Source of the DNA: a virus | Taxonomy: Duplodnaviria; Caudoviricetes | Direction: 5' to 3' (one strand) | Virus record (IMG/VR): IMGVR_UViG_3300035498_000371 | Coordinates: 64,001 to 128,000 of that record | DNA: 64,000 nucleotides | Shown here: piece by piece, positions 5,357 to 17,511 of the stretch | Numbering within the stretch: the first letter of the stretch is position 1 | How the letters are laid out: each line of letters starts with the position of its first letter | Made by a program: the position numbers and the translations under genes | Notes under the pieces: model-generated | Databases searched by the model: none | The model's input: the letters and a program-made list of their open reading frames with translations, nothing else | What the model was told of the DNA's origin: nothing

Positions 5357-6070
5357 ATGGTAACAATCGTTCATAACGATTATGAAAAAATATCTGATAC
5401 GGTATTTTGGTTATCCAAAGAATGGATAATGAAATTTGTCGTTCAGTTGAATAAATATAGTGAAAAGAATGGAAGAGAAAACTTCTATAAAGAATTTGGA
5501 TACCAGAAGAAAGGCAATTTCTGTGTATCTATAAATAGAGATTTTAATTATTATTTTTTAATAGAATCAGTACAACGAGATTCTAATGGTTTTAAATATA
5601 GTTTAATGATAACTCAGCAAGATATTTATTTTCTTCAGTTTAAATTATCCAAGGCGGTAGAATGGTTTACAGGAGATTCATCTATATTTGCCAAAAAGGG
5701 TGAGGATATAATAATTCCATCTAAAGTTTATACTGAGAGAGTAGATCTTATAACTAATACATATATTGAGTTAGAACCATCAGTTATAAGATTTGATAAT
5801 GGAAATCAAATAATTGGAGTTAGATTCTATTTAGGAAATGATACTGTTAATTTCTTTATGGATGTGAATAGATTCTTATCATTCAATTATTTTATATCAA
5901 CCTTTAATATGTATTTGGCTGCACAGGGCTTATTATCATATTTAGGAAGACCTCAGAATGGAACAAACCATATCAATATGAGCGCATTAAACTCATCCAA
6001 TCAAAATAGTAATTATAATAGTAATCAGACAAGCAGTTTCTTTGATAGAGTAAATGCAAAGAAGAATTAA
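5357..6070 (+). CDS. Hypothetical protein
   Basis: Long ORF; late-type motif AACT-N6-TA at 5311-5322; ATG at 5357 preferred over GTG at 5339. Confidence 0.7.
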   Translation: MVTIVHNDYEKISDTVFWLSKEWIMKFVVQLNKYSEKNGRENFYKEFGYQKKGNFCVSINRDFNYYFLIESVQRDSNGFKYSLMITQQDIYFLQFKLSKAVEWFTGDSSIFAKKGEDIIIPSKVYTERVDLITNTYIELEPSVIRFDNGNQIIGVRFYLGNDTVNFFMDVNRFLSFNYFISTFNMYLAAQGLLSYLGRPQNGTNHINMSALNSSNQNSNYNSNQTSSFFDRVNAKKN

Positions 6071-6081
6071 ATGGAGGAAAT

Positions 6082-6330
6082 ATGAAAGAAATACATTTAT
6101 TTGAATTTGACGATAATATATGTAAGAAGATTGATGAATCTGGATGTTTGGATGAGAAAGAGCTAAGAATTGTAGAGCTGGCATTAAAAATATTTAGTGC
6201 TCATGATATTGCTCTTAATCAATGTCTTGGACTGGAAGATGGTTCTAAAGATGCTAAGTTTGATTTCGGATTCAAATATTCTATAGCGGCGCAACATGAA
6301 AAATATGTAAAAGATAAGCAGGAAGGTTAA
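6082..6330 (+). CDS. Hypothetical protein
   Basis: GGAGG SD; ends in bidirectional hairpin shared with the convergent gene. Confidence 0.7.
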   Translation: MKEIHLFEFDDNICKKIDESGCLDEKELRIVELALKIFSAHDIALNQCLGLEDGSKDAKFDFGFKYSIAAQHEKYVKDKQEG

Positions 6331-6344
6331 TACCTTCCTGCTAT

Positions 6345-7097
6345 TTATACTGTCATAATAAGTATTTGATTTTCATTCGCTGTAGTGGTATGAGCCTCAT
6401 CAAGAGATCTTATGATATCTTCTCTTTTACTAGCCCAGTTCTGTATGGTTTCAAGCTTAAGACTAATAGTCATATAAGTAGTCTCTGTATCATCAAAATG
6501 TTTAAGCTGTTCATACAAGAACGCAGCCACATCTGCAGTGCAGAGATCTTCAAATACATTCATCATTGTAGGAGATATAGTCATAAGATTTATTGGATGC
6601 TCTATAAGAACCCATAAAGGAAATGATCTAAATCTTGTTACCATAGAACCATTGACTGTAACAAGTTTAATCTTATTAGGTGGTATGAAATCAATATAGA
6701 TTCCCATATTGAAAAGAGACATATAATCTGCTGATACTTGTGTAAGAGCGACTTCATCGGCTCCATATGTAGATAAGAAATTGTATCTATCATATCCGTT
6801 ATTACATCTGTAAGCATTCCAGTCTACATCTTCAGCCCCTAAGATAACGCTTCCTGTAGGAAGATCTTTATCAATGAAGAAGTAACCATCCTTTTCACAA
6901 GTATTATCAATTACAGCCATAACTCTATACGGAAAAAATCTACTAAATACAGGAATACTATCATCTTGAATGATAGTAGGCCAATAATCCTTTCCTATAG
7001 AATCAGGAAGATTAAGCATCATTGTTCCTAATCTACGTTCTATTTTGCCAAGTAGTTTAGACATCCTATTTGCGTGAACTACAGAATCTTTATACAT
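6345..7097 (-). CDS. Hypothetical late protein, possibly virion neck/head-completion
   Basis: AGGAGG SD and late motif AACA-CTCTAG-TA on minus strand (7119-7130); function is inference only. Confidence 0.65.
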   Translation of the reverse strand: MYKDSVVHANRMSKLLGKIERRLGTMMLNLPDSIGKDYWPTIIQDDSIPVFSRFFPYRVMAVIDNTCEKDGYFFIDKDLPTGSVILGAEDVDWNAYRCNNGYDRYNFLSTYGADEVALTQVSADYMSLFNMGIYIDFIPPNKIKLVTVNGSMVTRFRSFPLWVLIEHPINLMTISPTMMNVFEDLCTADVAAFLYEQLKHFDDTETTYMTISLKLETIQNWASKREDIIRSLDEAHTTTANENQILIMTV

Positions 7098-7187
7098 AGA
7101 GAAGCACCTCCTTATTTTTACTAGAGTGTTGAATCTTGATAATATCGCATTTGATTATATATTATAATTTTGGAGGTGATAAGGAAA

Positions 7188-7955
7188 ATGATTCAATATG
7201 TAAATATACCAAAAACAGAATCATTTATTTATAAAGTCTTCCAATATTATAATGGAAGAATTAATACTTGCAACTTGGCAAGATTAGAAATAAATTGGGT
7301 TGGATTATATGATAGAGCTGAAGCAGGGTTATCTAGAAATCCTAATTTAGTTATTATTAACCCGCATGTTGTAGCGAGATATACAGACGATGAGTTTACG
7401 TTCTATTTTGTAATATTAGAAACGATAATTCACGAATTATATCATCAGGATCAGATGATCGATTATATAAAAATGGCATCAGATCCAAATTATGTAATTT
7501 TGATAGAATCTGCTGTAGAGATTCAGACCAATATTTATATAGCAAATCATATAAATGAAATTCTATATAATTTTGGTATTGATGCTAGCAGATATGGATT
7601 GGAAATATACAGAGAAAATATTTCCTTATTTGAGTATGGGTACCACTATAAGCGTAGAACGTGGTTTGATCATATACTCATAGCATTACGGGAGGTGATT
7701 TATTATTTTGATACATTTACCGACGTATCAGAAGATCTTAAAAAAATATTGGATACTGGAGTCGGTGATTTTAAAATATCCATAAATGGAATCTTCATGG
7801 ATATTTGTAAAAATGGAGTATGGGTAAACATTCAAACTCTGAATGATTTCCTATATGAAACATTCTTTAGCCATACAGTAAGAACAATCGCCGTTACATA
7901 CGGAAGAGATGGATGGTTAGAGATAAATGCGGAACTGAAAAATAAAATGTGCTAG
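7188..7955 (+). CDS. HExxH (zincin-like) protein, paralog 1
   Basis: IIHELYHQDQ plus downstream E; YYNGRINT motif shared with next gene. Confidence 0.7.
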   Translation: MIQYVNIPKTESFIYKVFQYYNGRINTCNLARLEINWVGLYDRAEAGLSRNPNLVIINPHVVARYTDDEFTFYFVILETIIHELYHQDQMIDYIKMASDPNYVILIESAVEIQTNIYIANHINEILYNFGIDASRYGLEIYRENISLFEYGYHYKRRTWFDHILIALREVIYYFDTFTDVSEDLKKILDTGVGDFKISINGIFMDICKNGVWVNIQTLNDFLYETFFSHTVRTIAVTYGRDGWLEINAELKNKMC

Positions 7956-10414: not shown

Positions 10415-13009
10415 ATGATAAAAGTCGCAGTAGAAGACGTTAATCACAGAAAGTCTACAAGACGTACGAAGTTCAGTAGAGCTAATGTGACAAATAATGC
10501 TTTCCCAAGGCTTTATACTGAAAATGGAGTATTCTGTCAGAATAATACCATTGATGCTATACAGCATTGGGATAGAATAGCCGAAGATACTAACGTTGCT
10601 TATGATAAAGCTTTAGATGCATTTTGCGAGCTATGCTTAAATGCAAATCAATCCGTTATATCTACTCAGTGTTCTTTTTTAGTAGAGAACGTTGATAAAG
10701 TAAGAGATGCTAATAGTCTTATGAATTCTATTAAATATAGAAATTCAAGATTAAAGACTAAGATTGCTACTAAGATTAATAATAAAATTTCTGGAGTGAA
10801 CGATACTATACAGAATTCTATTAGTAATCTATCTCAAACTCTTCATAAAGCCGGTACAGGTTCAACTGCAGGAGTTGCTAAATCTACTCAAGTTTCTGAA
10901 AGTTTTATTGATGAATGTTTCGATAAGATTTATACTAAAGCCAGACAAGCTAAAGAATGCGATCGCATTCTTGAAAATTATTCAAAAATAGCAAGAAGTT
11001 TTAATGTGAATGAGATTGTTAGATGCATCTCTAATAAGAATGACATCTATCAGGCTGTTGTAGATATAACAGAATGCGTGGACCAATTCAATATTGGATT
11101 TAAATCCAAATATAATGCAGCTCTTGAAACTTCATTATATGCTCTCAATACTAATCACATTTATTGTGATAAGAGTAAGATCATTGAAGCCGTAACTGAC
11201 TATTTTATCTTTAATTATGGTTTAACTGAATCACAGATTGGAGATATTAGAAAGTTAAGCACTTCATCTGTATTATATGAAAGCTCTGATTTCGATGATT
11301 CTGATTATCTATGGCAGACTTCTGTAACTGATGATAACACGAGTATGGATTATATAGAACCAGATGAGTATAGCGATGGCTTAGCAATGGTTTCTGAATC
11401 ATTAAAGAAGACTCTTAATGATAAGAAGAATGAACTTAAGCATGAATATAAAGATGCTAAGAAAGACGTTAGAGCCGTGAATAAAATGGTTAAGAAAAAT
11501 GCTAGACATGGAAATCCAGAAGAGCAGCGTGATGAAGAAATTAAAGCAATGGTTGATGATTTCCGTAAGCAATGTACTAAAAATAAAGATGATAAAGATA
11601 GAAAATCTGCAGTGGTACAGCTAAAGGCTCTTATTACTAAGATCTTTACAAGATCTCCAGCACAGATTATCTATGAATTACCATCTATCTTTGGTATTAT
11701 TAGAGGGTCGTTTATTGTAACGATATTCTCTGTAAATCCTATATTGGGAATTATTACATTGATTACCGATCAGTGTATTAAAATGACCCTTACAAGAAAG
11801 CAGATGGAGAAAGTCATTAAAGCATATGAGAATGAGATCTCTTCTTGCAATAATCGCTTAGATAAAGTCAAAGATAGTGATGAGAAAGATCGCTTAACTA
11901 AGTATAGAGATAAACTCAAAGAAGATCTCGAAAAGCTTAGAGAATATGACAGAAGTAATTATACAGAAGAAGAAAATGATGAGCGTAACGCTTATGATTA
12001 TGATGATGATTTCGATGGTGATGATGACTTCGACTTTGATGACGACGATGAATGGGGAGATTTAGACTTCGATGAAGGAGCTATTCGTACAATGGCAGCT
12101 ATAGTCGTTACAGAACAGCTTATGACTAGCATATCTGAAACATTAATCGACGATGATATTGACGGTATAGTTTGTGATAACATATTCAAGCTTCCTAACG
12201 AAGATCTAGATACAGCAGCAGATTTTGCTATCACCGTTCCAGTGCTTCATGAAAGAGATAGATTATGCGAAGCAATGATTCAACAAAAAGATCTTATTTA
12301 TACTCATGAAAATATGACAGTAGAGGATAGAAAGAGAATCGATTGCCTTAATGAGAATATTTATAAGATTAGAAATGCTGGCGGTACTACTGCCCCTACA
12401 ACGTTGAAAGAATCTATTTGTTATCTTAAAGCCATTCAAGAAATCTTAAATATTGAGGGGCAAGAAGAATACGTAACAGAGATGGATTTTTCTAATACAT
12501 TAAAGCTTGCTGTAGATAATATGAAAAGATCTGCTGTTAAATTAAGTGATAAAGAGAAGAAAATATCAAGTGATATTGACGTTACTGTAAATCAGTTCTC
12601 TAAATCATTACAGACAGCAATGATGAATGGCAATAGAGAAGCAGTCATTAAAGGAAAAGTAATACCTTCAGCATCTAAATGTATAAAGCTTGCTTTAGTT
12701 ACAGGAGCAGCATGGGCTATCAATCCAGCCATAGCTGTAATTGGCGCTCTTGGAACATTCGCCTGTATGAAGAAGATGCAAAAGAAGGAAAGACAGCTTG
12801 TAATAGATGATATTGAGATCGAACTTAAGATGTGCGAGAGATATATCCAGCAGGCTGAAAATGAAAATGATCTTAAGAAAGTCAGGGAACTTGAGAAAAC
12901 TCAGAGAACTCTCGAAAGACAGCTACAGAGAATTAGATATAAGATGAATGTAGAATATGGAGAGAGCACTCCAAGCTCTACTTATAGACCTGGCGGGGAT
13001 AGAGATTAA
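10415..13009 (+). CDS. Large putative inner-head/virion protein with two hydrophobic hairpin plus coiled-coil repeats
   Basis: Late promoter, head-operon position, many [ILVF]xE[SAG] motifs, acidic linker. Confidence 0.7.
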   Translation: MIKVAVEDVNHRKSTRRTKFSRANVTNNAFPRLYTENGVFCQNNTIDAIQHWDRIAEDTNVAYDKALDAFCELCLNANQSVISTQCSFLVENVDKVRDANSLMNSIKYRNSRLKTKIATKINNKISGVNDTIQNSISNLSQTLHKAGTGSTAGVAKSTQVSESFIDECFDKIYTKARQAKECDRILENYSKIARSFNVNEIVRCISNKNDIYQAVVDITECVDQFNIGFKSKYNAALETSLYALNTNHIYCDKSKIIEAVTDYFIFNYGLTESQIGDIRKLSTSSVLYESSDFDDSDYLWQTSVTDDNTSMDYIEPDEYSDGLAMVSESLKKTLNDKKNELKHEYKDAKKDVRAVNKMVKKNARHGNPEEQRDEEIKAMVDDFRKQCTKNKDDKDRKSAVVQLKALITKIFTRSPAQIIYELPSIFGIIRGSFIVTIFSVNPILGIITLITDQCIKMTLTRKQMEKVIKAYENEISSCNNRLDKVKDSDEKDRLTKYRDKLKEDLEKLREYDRSNYTEEENDERNAYDYDDDFDGDDDFDFDDDDEWGDLDFDEGAIRTMAAIVVTEQLMTSISETLIDDDIDGIVCDNIFKLPNEDLDTAADFAITVPVLHERDRLCEAMIQQKDLIYTHENMTVEDRKRIDCLNENIYKIRNAGGTTAPTTLKESICYLKAIQEILNIEGQEEYVTEMDFSNTLKLAVDNMKRSAVKLSDKEKKISSDIDVTVNQFSKSLQTAMMNGNREAVIKGKVIPSASKCIKLALVTGAAWAINPAIAVIGALGTFACMKKMQKKERQLVIDDIEIELKMCERYIQQAENENDLKKVRELEKTQRTLERQLQRIRYKMNVEYGESTPSSTYRPGGDRD

Positions 13010-13034: not shown

Positions 13035-14168
13035 ATGATTTTTAATATTAATTCAAATCCTGGATTCGTTCATGAGTTGGAAATAAATGGTCAGAAAGTC
13101 GACGAAGACGATAATAAAAATGACTATACTGCTAATGCAGATGATGACACTGGTGGAGATAATCCACCAGCTGAACCTGAGGATACAACAGAACCAGCAG
13201 ATGACGATAATACGGATGATGCTGGAGATGATATGACTGATTATACTGCTGAAGACTTCGATGATGGAGACGATGAAGGCGGCGACGATAGCACCACAGA
13301 TGAGCCAGCAGATAATGAAGAAGATCAACCTGATAATGCCGGTAATAATGATGAAGGCGGAGAAACTTCAACAGATTATACTACTGATGATACTGACTTA
13401 GACACTCCAGATGAAGATGAAGGCGACGAGCCAGATGATGCTGGAGGAGATGCAGAACCAACAGATGGGGATAGCCCAGATAATACTGAAGATGACGAGG
13501 ATGGGGATGCTCCAGAAGATGATATGACCGATTATACTGCTGAAGACTTCGATGATGGAGACGATGAAGGCGGTGATGAGGATGCTGGAGATGGAGAAGA
13601 TGTCACTACAGATGAACCAGATAATAGTGGGGCTACAGGTGATTCAAATTCAACAGATTATACTGCTGAAGGTGATGACGACGAAGGTGGAGATGAAGGA
13701 GATGCTGGAGACGACACCGGAGATGATGAAGGAGCCGATGATAATGCAGACGATTCTGGCGATGAAGACGCGACAACTGATGGGGAAGAGAATAGCTCAG
13801 ATCCAAAGAGTTTAGCAGATATGGAAAAGAATCTGTTCTCTGATCTTACTCCTCAACAGATGTCTATCAAAAATACTGAGCTTCTTCAGAACTATATAGA
13901 TCTTCATGCTACATTAGAAACTATAACAACGGATCTTGATAAGATAGAAAAAACTTTTGAGAATACAAGAGTTATTGATTTCATTCAAGATAAACTTACA
14001 GAGTTGAAGGATATTATAAACTACACTATAACCACTACATACATTACAAGAACGTATGTAGAGAACCTTTCAAACTATAAACAAGCACTTTTAACTTTAC
14101 AGCAAATCAATTCAATGCTTAAAGGATTAATACAAAAGCCGGCAAAACAAACAAATACCGAACAGTAA
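13035..14168 (+). CDS. Highly acidic scaffold-like head protein with TDYTAE repeats and C-terminal helical domain
   Basis: About 240 aa D/E/G-rich region directly upstream of the probable capsid gene. Confidence 0.65.
   Translation: MIFNINSNPGFVHELEINGQKVDEDDNKNDYTANADDDTGGDNPPAEPEDTTEPADDDNTDDAGDDMTDYTAEDFDDGDDEGGDDSTTDEPADNEEDQPDNAGNNDEGGETSTDYTTDDTDLDTPDEDEGDEPDDAGGDAEPTDGDSPDNTEDDEDGDAPEDDMTDYTAEDFDDGDDEGGDEDAGDGEDVTTDEPDNSGATGDSNSTDYTAEGDDDEGGDEGDAGDDTGDDEGADDNADDSGDEDATTDGEENSSDPKSLADMEKNLFSDLTPQQMSIKNTELLQNYIDLHATLETITTDLDKIEKTFENTRVIDFIQDKLTELKDIINYTITTTYITRTYVENLSNYKQALLTLQQINSMLKGLIQKPAKQTNTEQ
13226..13573 (+). repeat. 57-bp in-frame direct repeat (13226-13282 and 13517-13573, one mismatch) encoding DDMTDYTAEDFDDGDDEGG
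   Basis: Direct comparison of the two copies. Confidence 0.85.
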
Positions 14169-14173
14169 ATATT

Positions 14174-14185
14174 AACAATATAGTA
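14174..14185 (+). promoter_or_regulatory. Late-type promoter motif for the capsid gene
   Basis: AACA-ATATAG-TA. Confidence 0.65.
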
Positions 14186-14263: not shown

Positions 14264-16114
14264 ATGCCAGTTGTAGGTGAAAGACGAAATCCTAACATGG
14301 GAAATATGTCTAAAGATCCCATGTATGCATATGCTGCAGCCTTCATGGAAACACAGCAGAATATGCTTCGTGAAAATCGCATCGACTATGGTTTCGAGCC
14401 AGTAAGAGCATTGGCTATTCAGGGAAACCGTGATGCACTCAGAAAATTCTATGTTGAAAATTCGGTGGTAGGCGACCGAAACAGTATGACAACAGAGGAG
14501 TACGACGATCAGATCAAAATGATGGACGAGGCGTTCATCAATGATATGCAGGCCGTACAGGAAAATGGTAGTATTGGTATGGCTCAGTACAACCCGATGG
14601 TTGGTCTGTCTCTGCCTATGCATAAATACCTTATGTTAAACTGTGTATTCGCACAGGCTATTCCTCGTTTCGTTGCTAAGTCTAGTTCTTGGACTGAGAC
14701 AATGGAAACAAGATTCATGGTTACACCGGATGGAAAGAAGATTGATATCGCCAATCAGCAGAATCAGATCTATCCAGCATGGAAGAGCGCTAACAAACCT
14801 ATCGAGGTTGCTATCGCATTGCCAGAGGTTCAGACAGTGGATATTCTTAATGAGTATTTCCACGTAGATCGTAAGAGTCACAATCTTTCTGTTGCTACTC
14901 ATATCTCTGCAGTTGCAATTGAGGATGCTTATAAGAAAGGTGATACTGTTCTTACAATCGCCGATGGCGTTATTACAGAATCAGTTGCTACTGAGGATGG
15001 TACAGGACTTGTATGGAAACCTTGGTTAGCAGAGTTCACACCAGGATATGGTGAGTATAACCGTGTTATTACAAAACCAGTTGATATTGTTGTTACAGGT
15101 GCAGATGGAGAGGAAACAGCGTTCCATGATTCTATCTTTGCTATGCAGCAGGATAATATGTTTGAGATCAACTCAGGCGGTAAGATCAAAGCTGTTAAGA
15201 TGTATGCTCGTTATGACGCATCTTCAAGAATGCTTAAGACTCCGAGAGTAGAGTGGAGCGAGAGAACTACATTCGTTCAGATTCCTGAGAATGATGGTAT
15301 TACTGTACCTATCACTCCTGAGGAAGTAAAAGACATCGGCGCTAACTATGGTATCAATCAGGTTACCAAGTACATGAGCATGATCAAAGACATTCTTGAG
15401 AATGTTAAAGATGATGATATCCACAATGAGCTTGATGAGAGCTTTATGAGATTGGATGACGATCACAGATTGGCTAAGACAATCGATTTCGCTCCTCGTC
15501 AGGGATACTACAGTGATCACCTTGAGTGGTTACAGAGGACATTCATGAATACACTCGATCAGTATATTACTGGTCTGCTTACAGTTCTTCGTGATCCTAA
15601 TATGCAGATCTGCATTGTTGGTCGTCCAGGACTTATCAGACAGATTACACCTACAGAGTACAGCTACGCTACTCCTTCAAGTGTTGGTCCTATCGAGCTT
15701 GACTTTAAGAAGACTGTTGTTACTTCAGATAAGAGAGTATACAACTTCATCTCTTCTGATAAGTTATTCGGAAATGATAATCTCATTGTTCTCTTGATTC
15801 CTAAGAACACTGATCGTATCGTATATCGTTTATATGATTATCAGATGTACATCAGCAATGAGATCAGAGATGCTGAGAATCCGGCGCTTCCTGCATTAAC
15901 TGCATTCCAGCGTTACAAATTCTTCTCATATCAGCCTGTTCAGGGTCGTCTGTTCGTTGCTAATCCTAGCGGTCTTCGTGAGCATCTGCCTAACGTTGAT
16001 CCTATTGGACCTCAGTATACAAACAATGATCTTGGTAGCGTTTACACTCATTATGATGAGGCTACAGGCAAGAATGTTGCAACAGCAAATGAGCTTCCTG
16101 AAGTAGACGGTTAA
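14264..16114 (+). CDS. Probable major capsid protein precursor
   Basis: 616 aa; own late promoter, strong SD and terminator; high-expression codon bias; helical N-terminal propeptide ending near VQE-NG; sits in protease/scaffold cluster. Confidence 0.75.
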   Translation: MPVVGERRNPNMGNMSKDPMYAYAAAFMETQQNMLRENRIDYGFEPVRALAIQGNRDALRKFYVENSVVGDRNSMTTEEYDDQIKMMDEAFINDMQAVQENGSIGMAQYNPMVGLSLPMHKYLMLNCVFAQAIPRFVAKSSSWTETMETRFMVTPDGKKIDIANQQNQIYPAWKSANKPIEVAIALPEVQTVDILNEYFHVDRKSHNLSVATHISAVAIEDAYKKGDTVLTIADGVITESVATEDGTGLVWKPWLAEFTPGYGEYNRVITKPVDIVVTGADGEETAFHDSIFAMQQDNMFEINSGGKIKAVKMYARYDASSRMLKTPRVEWSERTTFVQIPENDGITVPITPEEVKDIGANYGINQVTKYMSMIKDILENVKDDDIHNELDESFMRLDDDHRLAKTIDFAPRQGYYSDHLEWLQRTFMNTLDQYITGLLTVLRDPNMQICIVGRPGLIRQITPTEYSYATPSSVGPIELDFKKTVVTSDKRVYNFISSDKLFGNDNLIVLLIPKNTDRIVYRLYDYQMYISNEIRDAENPALPALTAFQRYKFFSYQPVQGRLFVANPSGLREHLPNVDPIGPQYTNNDLGSVYTHYDEATGKNVATANELPEVDG

Positions 16115-16140
16115 TTAATGTAAATGATCAAGATATACAG

Positions 16141-16160
16141 GGGTAGCAGAAATGCTACCC
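16141..16160 (+). terminator. Intrinsic terminator after capsid gene
   Basis: GGGTAGCA-gaaa-TGCTACCC plus T-rich tail. Confidence 0.75.
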
Positions 16161-16226
16161 TTGTAATTTTGTCTTATTCATTCACGTCGGAACAAATAAA
16201 TAAAAATAGATAGAGGAGGTGTTTGT

Positions 16227-16388
16227 ATGGCTACTATAAATCCATATGCTAGACCATACCCTACTAATGATTTGGGATCGGTATATACACATTATAATCC
16301 TAAAACTGGTAAGAATGAACCAACTCCAAATGTATTACCAAACAATAATCCAAAGGAGGATAACAAGGATGGAAAAGACACCAAGTAA
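16227..16388 (+). CDS. 53-aa protein homologous to the capsid protein C-terminal arm (missing from ORF track)
   Basis: MATINPYARPYPTNDLGSVYTHYNPKTGKNEPTPNVLP...; GAGGAGGT SD; late motif AACA-AATAAA-TA at 16191-16202. Confidence 0.8.
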   Translation: MATINPYARPYPTNDLGSVYTHYNPKTGKNEPTPNVLPNNNPKEDNKDGKDTK

Positions 16389-17511
16389 TTATAACTTTTC
16401 TAATATGGAAAAGTTGTTATTTGCTATTGATGAAGATCATTCCAGTTCTACTTTATCTAAACTGAAGAATGAGCTGAATAAGTTTTTCAATAAAGCAAAA
16501 TGTAAAGAAGTTTTATATACTATGAACACCGATAAGATGTTTTTCGGTATGAGAGTTTATCCTATGATTAATGGAGATGAGGCTCTTGAAATTCTGGGAG
16601 ATGGAAAGACTAAACCATTTGAGTACTACTACGTAGAGCTTGATTCTAAATTATTTGATCCTATGCTGGGGTTGGATGAGAAGGAGCTAACAGCCATATT
16701 ACTTCATGAGGTTGGTCATATTGTATATGATACTGGTACTATAGATGAAGTACGCAAAGCAGTTGATATGTATTTTGCTGGAACTGGAGATTATGCAGAT
16801 CCTAAAGTTTCTAAAGGATATAAAGAGCTTATTGGATATGCAATGAAAGACTCTGTTATGAAAGTAGGTTCTATATTCTCTAGATTCGGTAATGATGAAA
16901 TCATTGCAGATGCTTTTGTTACAGGCTGTGGCTATGGTCCTTATCTTGAGAGTGGTGTAAGAAAGATTATGAGGTCTGATACATATTTGAATAAAGATGT
17001 TGATGATAGATTAATCACTCTTAGTTGGGTATTAAGACTTCGTAGTGAGTTTGCTATAAGAAGATTACCAGCAATACATACTCTTAATAAAGCAAAACAC
17101 CTTACTGGTTCTCAGCTTGAGAAGAGAGAATTAGATTATGCTGTTAATTTGCTTAATCACATGGATGAACCAATGACTGAAGGGGCTATCGATGCTGTAA
17201 AGCAGAGATTCTCTAAGAAGTTCAATGACTTCAAGGTTAAGGGTATTAACGCTATTAAGAACGATGTATATGAGTTTAATGTTAGACTTCGTTGTGCAGA
17301 GTCTGAAGATGATCTTTTGTATATCATCAGAGCAATCAATAGAGATGTAACAATACTTCAGGATTATCTTACAGAAGACATTCCTGATAAGGAAAGAGAA
17401 GCAGTATTAGCAACCTTACAGGAGCTTTATGATGTAAGACAGAAAGCAGCAAAAGAAAAGAGTGTAAGAAATCTTAGCAGTAGTCTTATAAATGTCGTAT
17501 ATCCAGAGTAA
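16369..17511 (+). CDS. HExxH-containing putative virion protein
   Basis: AILLHEVGH plus EIIAD; start moved to 16369 behind AAGGAGG. Confidence 0.7.
   Translation: MEKTPSNYNFSNMEKLLFAIDEDHSSSTLSKLKNELNKFFNKAKCKEVLYTMNTDKMFFGMRVYPMINGDEALEILGDGKTKPFEYYYVELDSKLFDPMLGLDEKELTAILLHEVGHIVYDTGTIDEVRKAVDMYFAGTGDYADPKVSKGYKELIGYAMKDSVMKVGSIFSRFGNDEIIADAFVTGCGYGPYLESGVRKIMRSDTYLNKDVDDRLITLSWVLRLRSEFAIRRLPAIHTLNKAKHLTGSQLEKRELDYAVNLLNHMDEPMTEGAIDAVKQRFSKKFNDFKVKGINAIKNDVYEFNVRLRCAESEDDLLYIIRAINRDVTILQDYLTEDIPDKEREAVLATLQELYDVRQKAAKEKSVRNLSSSLINVVYPE

Follow-up and report, generated by a model that had tools for sequence, protein, structure and literature searches.

A mini-gene resembling the capsid protein tail precedes the zincin gene in a lineage of S6/AR9-like jumbo phages

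Why would a jumbo phage keep, close behind its capsid gene, a separate and much smaller gene that repeats part of the end of the capsid protein? The question was raised by a 64,000-nt stretch of DNA (the window) from the 238.8-kb genome of an uncultured S6/AR9-like jumbo phage. An earlier note had described a 53-aa ORF in it as an unannotated, free-standing copy of the capsid protein's C-terminal arm. According to that note, the arm is supplied in trans, perhaps to fill arm-binding sites at portal or penton vertices, or to tune assembly or capsid size. We recovered the ORF, the major capsid protein (MCP) gene, the terminator, the promoter and the Shine-Dalgarno (SD) sequence at the positions that the note had given them. 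The features of the capsid gene are:

14146 to 14185, plus strand: late-promoter motif AACA-N6-TA of the AR9 type ahead of the MCP gene, in two tandem copies (14146 and 14174)
14264 to 16114, plus strand: MCP gene, encoding a precursor of 616 aa with an S6/phiKZ-type HK97 fold, from sequence and fold matches
15974 to 16111, plus strand: C-terminal MCP tail (residues 571-616), specific to this lineage by comparison with S6/SA1 and relatives
16016 to 16096, plus strand: 27-residue tail motif (Y585-L611), predicted short helix and beta-hairpin
16136 to 16175, plus strand: intrinsic terminator that ends the MCP transcript, with a 13-bp stem and a T tract

The ORF upstream of the mini-gene encodes the MCP, as the earlier note had supposed. 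It matched PHROG 20655 (major head protein) with E 1.6e-13 and ORF12 of jumbo phage S6 (PDB 7X30) with E 2e-12 in a sequence search and 1.5e-22 in a profile search. A Foldseek search with the MCP model returned 7X30 first (E 1e-16), followed by phiKp24, P1 and phiKZ; the TM-scores of these matches were low because the model was mediocre (pTM 0.41). The gene order, a divergent S77 prohead protease gene, two genes, the MCP gene and a HEXXH gene, is the same in Staphylococcus phage SA1. Residues 1-100 of the MCP, which end at an invariant Glu (E100), probably form a propeptide that would be cleaved off. The AACA-N6-TA motif matches the AR9 late-promoter consensus (PMC5312081), and the relatives have a hairpin at the position equivalent to the MCP terminator. 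Also before the MCP gene are an 864-aa protein (window 10415-13009) and a very acidic 377-aa repeat protein (window 13035-14168). Both have several hydrophobic-x-Glu motifs and are likely scaffold or core proteins.

The MCPs of S6 and SA1 end 5 residues past the position matching G570 of this MCP, and relatives at 37-40% identity (L015, L036 and L042) have no tail. As all these proteins stop near G570, residues 571-616 were added in one clade. Within that clade the tail motif was present in 120 of 120 close MCP homologues. AlphaFold2 modelled it as a short helix and a beta-hairpin with a pLDDT of about 68, and the tail sequence found no match in the PDB. In the MCPs of L007 (5880-6040), L033 and L026, the motif is followed by repeats rich in Gly and Thr that reach about 50 residues, and such long repeats (L007, L033) fit an exposed terminus.

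We infer from the analogy with phiKZ and Goslar that the tail sits at the capsomer axis, on the outer surface. In phiKZ, each hexamer centre has a bundle of six helices made by the C-terminal arms, and in pentamers the arms shift to bind gp244 on the outside (PMC11297242). The arms of Goslar build a six-stranded barrel that is confined to hexons (PMC13742148). The capsid proteins of these phages (gp120 of phiKZ and gp41 of Goslar) belong to the same capsid family as the present MCP by fold, and their arms meet at the capsomer axis. By its position in the fold, the present tail should start where those arms do, although the arms and the tail are analogous in position and not homologous in sequence. 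The idea of an arm acting in trans is thus plausible, as the arms of this family at the capsomer axis differ between hexons and pentons (PMC11297242, PMC13742148).

The mini-gene follows the terminator and has signals of its own:

16191 to 16202, plus strand: late-promoter motif AACA-N6-TA, common to the mini-gene and the zincin gene
16213 to 16220, plus strand: SD sequence GAGGAGGT of the mini-gene, with SD-like sequence in relatives too
16227 to 16388, plus strand: mini-gene, 53 aa, with a variable N-terminus, a copy of the motif and a low-complexity end
16257 to 16337, plus strand: motif copy inside the mini-gene (Y11-L37)
16369 to 17511, plus strand: gene of a zincin (M48-like) protease of 380 aa, whose start lies within the mini-gene, with HEXXH at 16705-16719

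When the small ORF was searched against the whole genome by tblastn, it hit the MCP tail with E 4.7e-10 (20/38 identical), and the next best hit had E 0.22. A profile of the motif matched the genome at exactly two places, the MCP tail and the mini-gene. The copied stretch corresponds to about MCP residues 578-614, with a conserved core at 585-611. The duplication claimed in the earlier note was therefore real, but it did not take in the whole tail, whose conserved LREHLPN segment is absent from the copy. Codon comparison agreed that the 10-residue core is identical while six of its ten codons differ. Seven of 18 codons were shared between the two in this genome, and the longest identical run was 7 nt. 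A recent tandem duplication in this genome was rejected, since the silent sites are saturated. We saw no homology between the N-termini of the small ORFs and the MCP.

An automatic search found AACA/GACA-N6-TA before 19 of 21 small ORFs, and the other two were found by eye. The motif is short and AACA-N6-TA/G occurs 140 times in the genome; its position is nonetheless conserved in relatives. By this promoter motif, the mini-gene would be classed as an AR9-type late gene. Its codon adaptation was 0.60, compared with 0.75 for the MCP gene. Together with the terminator and the single promoter in place of two, this suggests that its product is a minority product.

We surveyed 29 distinct tail-bearing loci with a readable region before the zincin gene. 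A motif-bearing small ORF was found in 22 of them, on most branches of the tree and with MCP identities of 70-92%, so the expectation of a conserved small ORF in related phages was borne out. L010, L011, L022/23 and L032 have no mini-gene though the MCP tail is kept. The base of the MCP tree is star-like, which keeps gains and losses from being firmly ordered. A 35-position profile had 76 matches among 1.84 billion representatives. Free proteins made up about 70 of them, nearly all with lengths of 44-99 aa; besides these there were four MCP fragments and one low-complexity sequence from a plant, and none of the matches fused the motif to another known protein. The plant match aside, every occurrence of the motif in this set was in an MCP tail or a free small protein, and its role is therefore tied to the capsid. 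Pfam, PHROGs, INPHARED and the ESM Atlas gave no family name for the small protein. To this extent "unannotated" was apt; however, gene callers do predict the gene in relatives and the ESM Atlas contains the sequence. In the PDB, the same profile found no capsid accessory protein and one weak match (9NDY_H, E 0.004), a baseplate wedge of Felixounavirus Bas63 that we treated as chance. The literature searched, an incomplete set, had no description of such a mini-gene or of a capsid map of S6.

The mini-gene frame was open in 20 of 20 cores, and the other two frames had stops in 18 and 20 of the 20. Against the close relative L044, the mini-gene had 12 synonymous and three non-synonymous changes. 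Over all pairs, dN/dS was about 0.24 for the small ORFs and 0.09 for the tails, values that are rough because the silent sites are near saturation. Only the 27-residue motif was conserved among the small ORFs, and the flanks differed in length and sequence. Motif positions D5, N20, T23 and N25 were kept in 19 of 19 small ORFs, and the same positions are conserved in the tails. At motif position 3, by comparison, 68% of the small ORFs have Met and 120 of 120 tails have Asn. This signature of their own suggests that the small ORFs had one old origin and are not pure tail copies. Conserved RNA structure was rejected as the selected feature, given the variation at third positions and folding z-scores mostly near zero. 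Judged from the sequences, the mini-gene is a real protein-coding gene with an open frame, an SD sequence and purifying selection. Selection on the peptide, to which the earlier note had pointed, was thereby seen in the relatives also.

The gene downstream is a predicted zincin or M48-like protease, having HEXXH, a distal E-x-x-A-D and a zincin-like fold in its model. It matched phrog_2767 with E 4e-9; the match to Peptidase_M48 was weak and was seen in 12 of 24 members. Foldseek with its model found the AR9 "Zincin protease" (E 4e-4) and also phage peptidases, and fold searches of the PDB were uninformative. The 3′ end of the mini-gene overlaps the SD (16354-16359) and the ATG (16369) of the zincin gene, so that the two genes share 20 nt. 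In the relatives the mini-gene was always immediately before the zincin gene and mostly overlapped it, by 20 nt in 11 of 21 loci. It stays with the zincin gene and not with the MCP gene in L007, L008/9, L014 and L026, and in G001 it is 8 kb from the MCP gene. The mini-gene belongs to the zincin transcription unit. A programmed frameshift fusing the peptide to the zincin was rejected: the spacing varies from -26 to +35 nt, the frames differ and no fused protein was found.

Such a constant neighbor might be a partner. The tail might recruit the zincin or be its substrate, and the co-translated free copy might bind the enzyme at about 1:1, like a propeptide in trans, keeping it inactive or unlocalised until proheads out-compete the copy. 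Besides the linkage, L010 has a zincin homologue without HEXXH (6063-6827) and also no mini-gene, and the slot before the zincin gene is occupied by both kinds of MCP fragment described here. A role in maturation has been suggested for a conserved but uncharacterised zincin of phiKZ-like phages (PMC7824862), a possible orthologue of the present one. However, the zincin is older than the motif: the tail-less L042, L015/G004 and probably SA1 have a zincin and no mini-gene. L011, L022 and L032 retain the zincin without the mini-gene, and no motif-zincin fusion was among the 76 profile matches. The common promoter suffices to explain the linkage, and in L056 the zincin gene has its own late-promoter motif (7158-7196) between the mini-gene and itself, and the two genes do not overlap. 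A complex prediction with the tail-less MCP (101-575), the zincin and the peptide scored 0.00, which carries no weight either way. We regard a partnership with the zincin as unlikely. If it is true that the peptide governs the zincin, it would be the first handle on a protease that is conserved in phiKZ-like phages and whose role is unknown.

The second kind of MCP fragment was found in L031 (2863-3039), L039 (616-792), L058 (6001-6180) and P0123-P0129, where the slot before the zincin gene holds a mini-gene of 58-59 aa. This is a copy of MCP residues 522-574 (34% identical, E 1e-10) with no DNA similarity left. It is under weaker constraint, with dN/dS of 0.2-0.6, in-frame insertions and one frameshifted copy. 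MCP residues 522-574 are core strands, and therefore their copy cannot be an arm. In L011, a close relative of these three loci, the mini-gene was apparently lost by a deletion between the two SD sequences. One long ancestral duplication may or may not have given both fragment types.

The siting at portal or penton vertices and the tuning of capsid size that the earlier note had suggested stay conjectural. The tail is lineage-specific and has no counterpart in S6 and in the relatives at 37-40% identity. The mini-gene has been lost in at least four loci and travels with the zincin gene rather than the MCP gene, and in one clade its slot carries the copy of a core segment, which cannot act as an arm.

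Tail and mini-gene are also linked at the DNA level. In L004 the two are identical over 53 nt and in L051 over 41 nt, while the longest identical run between a tail and a mini-gene of different genomes was 23 nt (306 comparisons). These tracts show that the two exchange DNA by gene conversion. That swaps between tail and mini-gene are tolerated implies that the two are interchangeable in function. The likeness of the small ORFs was 0.59 to the tail of their own genome and 0.57 to other tails (permutation P = 0.03), a slight preference that is driven by the conversion tracts.

The peptide itself might also matter little. Any open leader with a good SD sequence might tune zincin translation by coupling, and the likeness to the MCP would then be a leftover of origin, refreshed by gene conversion. 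The conserved overlap with the zincin start, the tolerated losses, the conversion tracts and the different MCP fragment that serves one clade under weaker constraint would all suit such a leader. However, most genomes, the present one included, retain the residues while divergence from the tail is complete at the silent sites. The small ORFs keep their own signature across about 70 clusters, and conservation covers the motif alone and not the flanks. A mere coupling leader is thus quite improbable.

The capture of two different C-terminal MCP fragments as mini-genes, together with the patchy loss, might instead indicate a decoy. The free fragment would then titrate a host defence sensor, a host protease or a satellite that recognises the exposed C-terminal region of the MCP. 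Yet the motif has been conserved over a deep radiation and is not fast-changing, and the gene has a late promoter and a position inside the head module. Moreover, capsid epitopes in free form, T4 Gol for example, turn a defence on and not off. We therefore think a decoy decidedly improbable.

It could also be that the MCP itself releases the peptide. The head protease might cut at L-R-E573 and free an active peptide of about 43 residues, and the mini-gene would supply the same peptide independently of head maturation. A hydrophobic-R-E occurs there in 116 of 120 close homologues and resembles the N-terminal V-Q-E/V-R-E site, and the freed piece would equal the mini-protein in size and content. 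Against this, the Glu is missing in the deeper lineages L008/9, L010, L025, L026, L032 and L033, the protein of L036 ends at L-R, the ancestral terminus, and a tail on the outer surface would be beyond the reach of an internal protease. We hold such processing to be very unlikely.

Our best explanation, with a probability of about 0.45, is that a free tail, present in few copies, occupies the site of the MCP tail at the capsomer axes in the head or competes for it. Long ago, the 3′ end of the MCP gene would have been duplicated, and the copy would have come to lie past the MCP terminator, heading the late zincin transcription unit. Its product would be a mostly unstructured peptide of 45-65 residues in which the copied helix-hairpin motif is functional, and less of it than of the MCP would be made. 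Tails and mini-proteins are the only carriers of the motif, agree in their conserved residues and exchange sequence, and so the free copy most likely binds the tail's partner. That partner might be other tails, or a decoration protein docking on tails. The free copy could complete sites that geometry leaves short, such as five-membered pentons or portal-adjacent capsomers, which is possible but doubtful. It is also unlikely, if conceivable, that the copy transiently occupies the tail site during assembly and so times or limits tail engagement. In either case the mini-gene would be helpful, not essential, to the phage. The tracking with the zincin gene, the losses at L010, L011, L022/23 and L032, the clade with the MCP 522-574 copy, the weak matching to the own tail and the Met signature all count against the free-tail explanation.

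By analogy, the mini-protein may work like a small accessory head protein. phiKZ gp244 and Goslar gp146 are small dedicated penton proteins, but unlike the mini-gene product they are not described as copies of the arm (PMC11297242, PMC13742148). The actinobacteriophage gp4 proteins (54 aa in Adjutor and 102 aa in Patience) are likewise tiny; they are disordered when free and fold on the capsid at a subset of sites (PMC11965321). They differ in that they are not reported to be derived from the MCP, bind split hexamers and come from unrelated phages (PMC11965321).

Minority variants of capsid-protein sequence are otherwise familiar from T4 gp24, from T7 10B and SPP1-type frameshift extensions and from the readthrough protein A1 of Q-beta. 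T4 gp24 is a full HK97-fold paralogue, and T7 10B and Q-beta A1 remain fused to the capsid protein. The mini-gene is different, being a 27-residue piece in a separate gene past the terminator with its own promoter. A paralogue of the gp24 type was rejected, as only about 37 columns align to the MCP. An extension by frameshift or readthrough, as in T7 10B or Q-beta A1, was rejected since the terminator, the promoter and the SD sequence intervene and the distance (0.1-8 kb) and the frame vary.

The small proteins, about 70 clusters, form a family that so far has no name. They indicate how a minor head factor can come about: one arm of the capsid gene is copied, and the copy goes on to exchange DNA with its source. 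If it is true that the peptide fills vertex sites, it would be a new answer to the symmetry mismatch in very large capsids. One might speculate, with considerable doubt, that jumbo phages solve the hexon/penton (or portal) mismatch with a tail re-encoded as a free peptide, a "sixth arm" in trans that gene conversion keeps interchangeable. More broadly, the slot before the zincin gene would repeatedly capture capsid fragments as regulators of head maturation.

Several sequences depart from the common architecture. In the small ORF of L026 (4417-4758), the second half of the motif is missing, and a His/Tyr-rich extension after the first half takes the product to 113 aa. P0175 (171 aa) and P0169 (99 aa) have an N-terminal extension ahead of the motif, and they end like the genes that overlap the zincin start. 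In L027 (4768-4833), the MCP tail breaks off in mid-motif, after K-N-V, either by a real truncation or by an assembly error. The tail-less MCP of phage SA1 (L057:8330-8359), like that of S6, ends in NNNGSVYAR, whose faint likeness to NNDLGSVY of the motif is probably due to chance. In L030 (2255-2510), an insert of about 250 nt interrupts the MCP gene near its 3′ end, and its motifs recall a group I intron.
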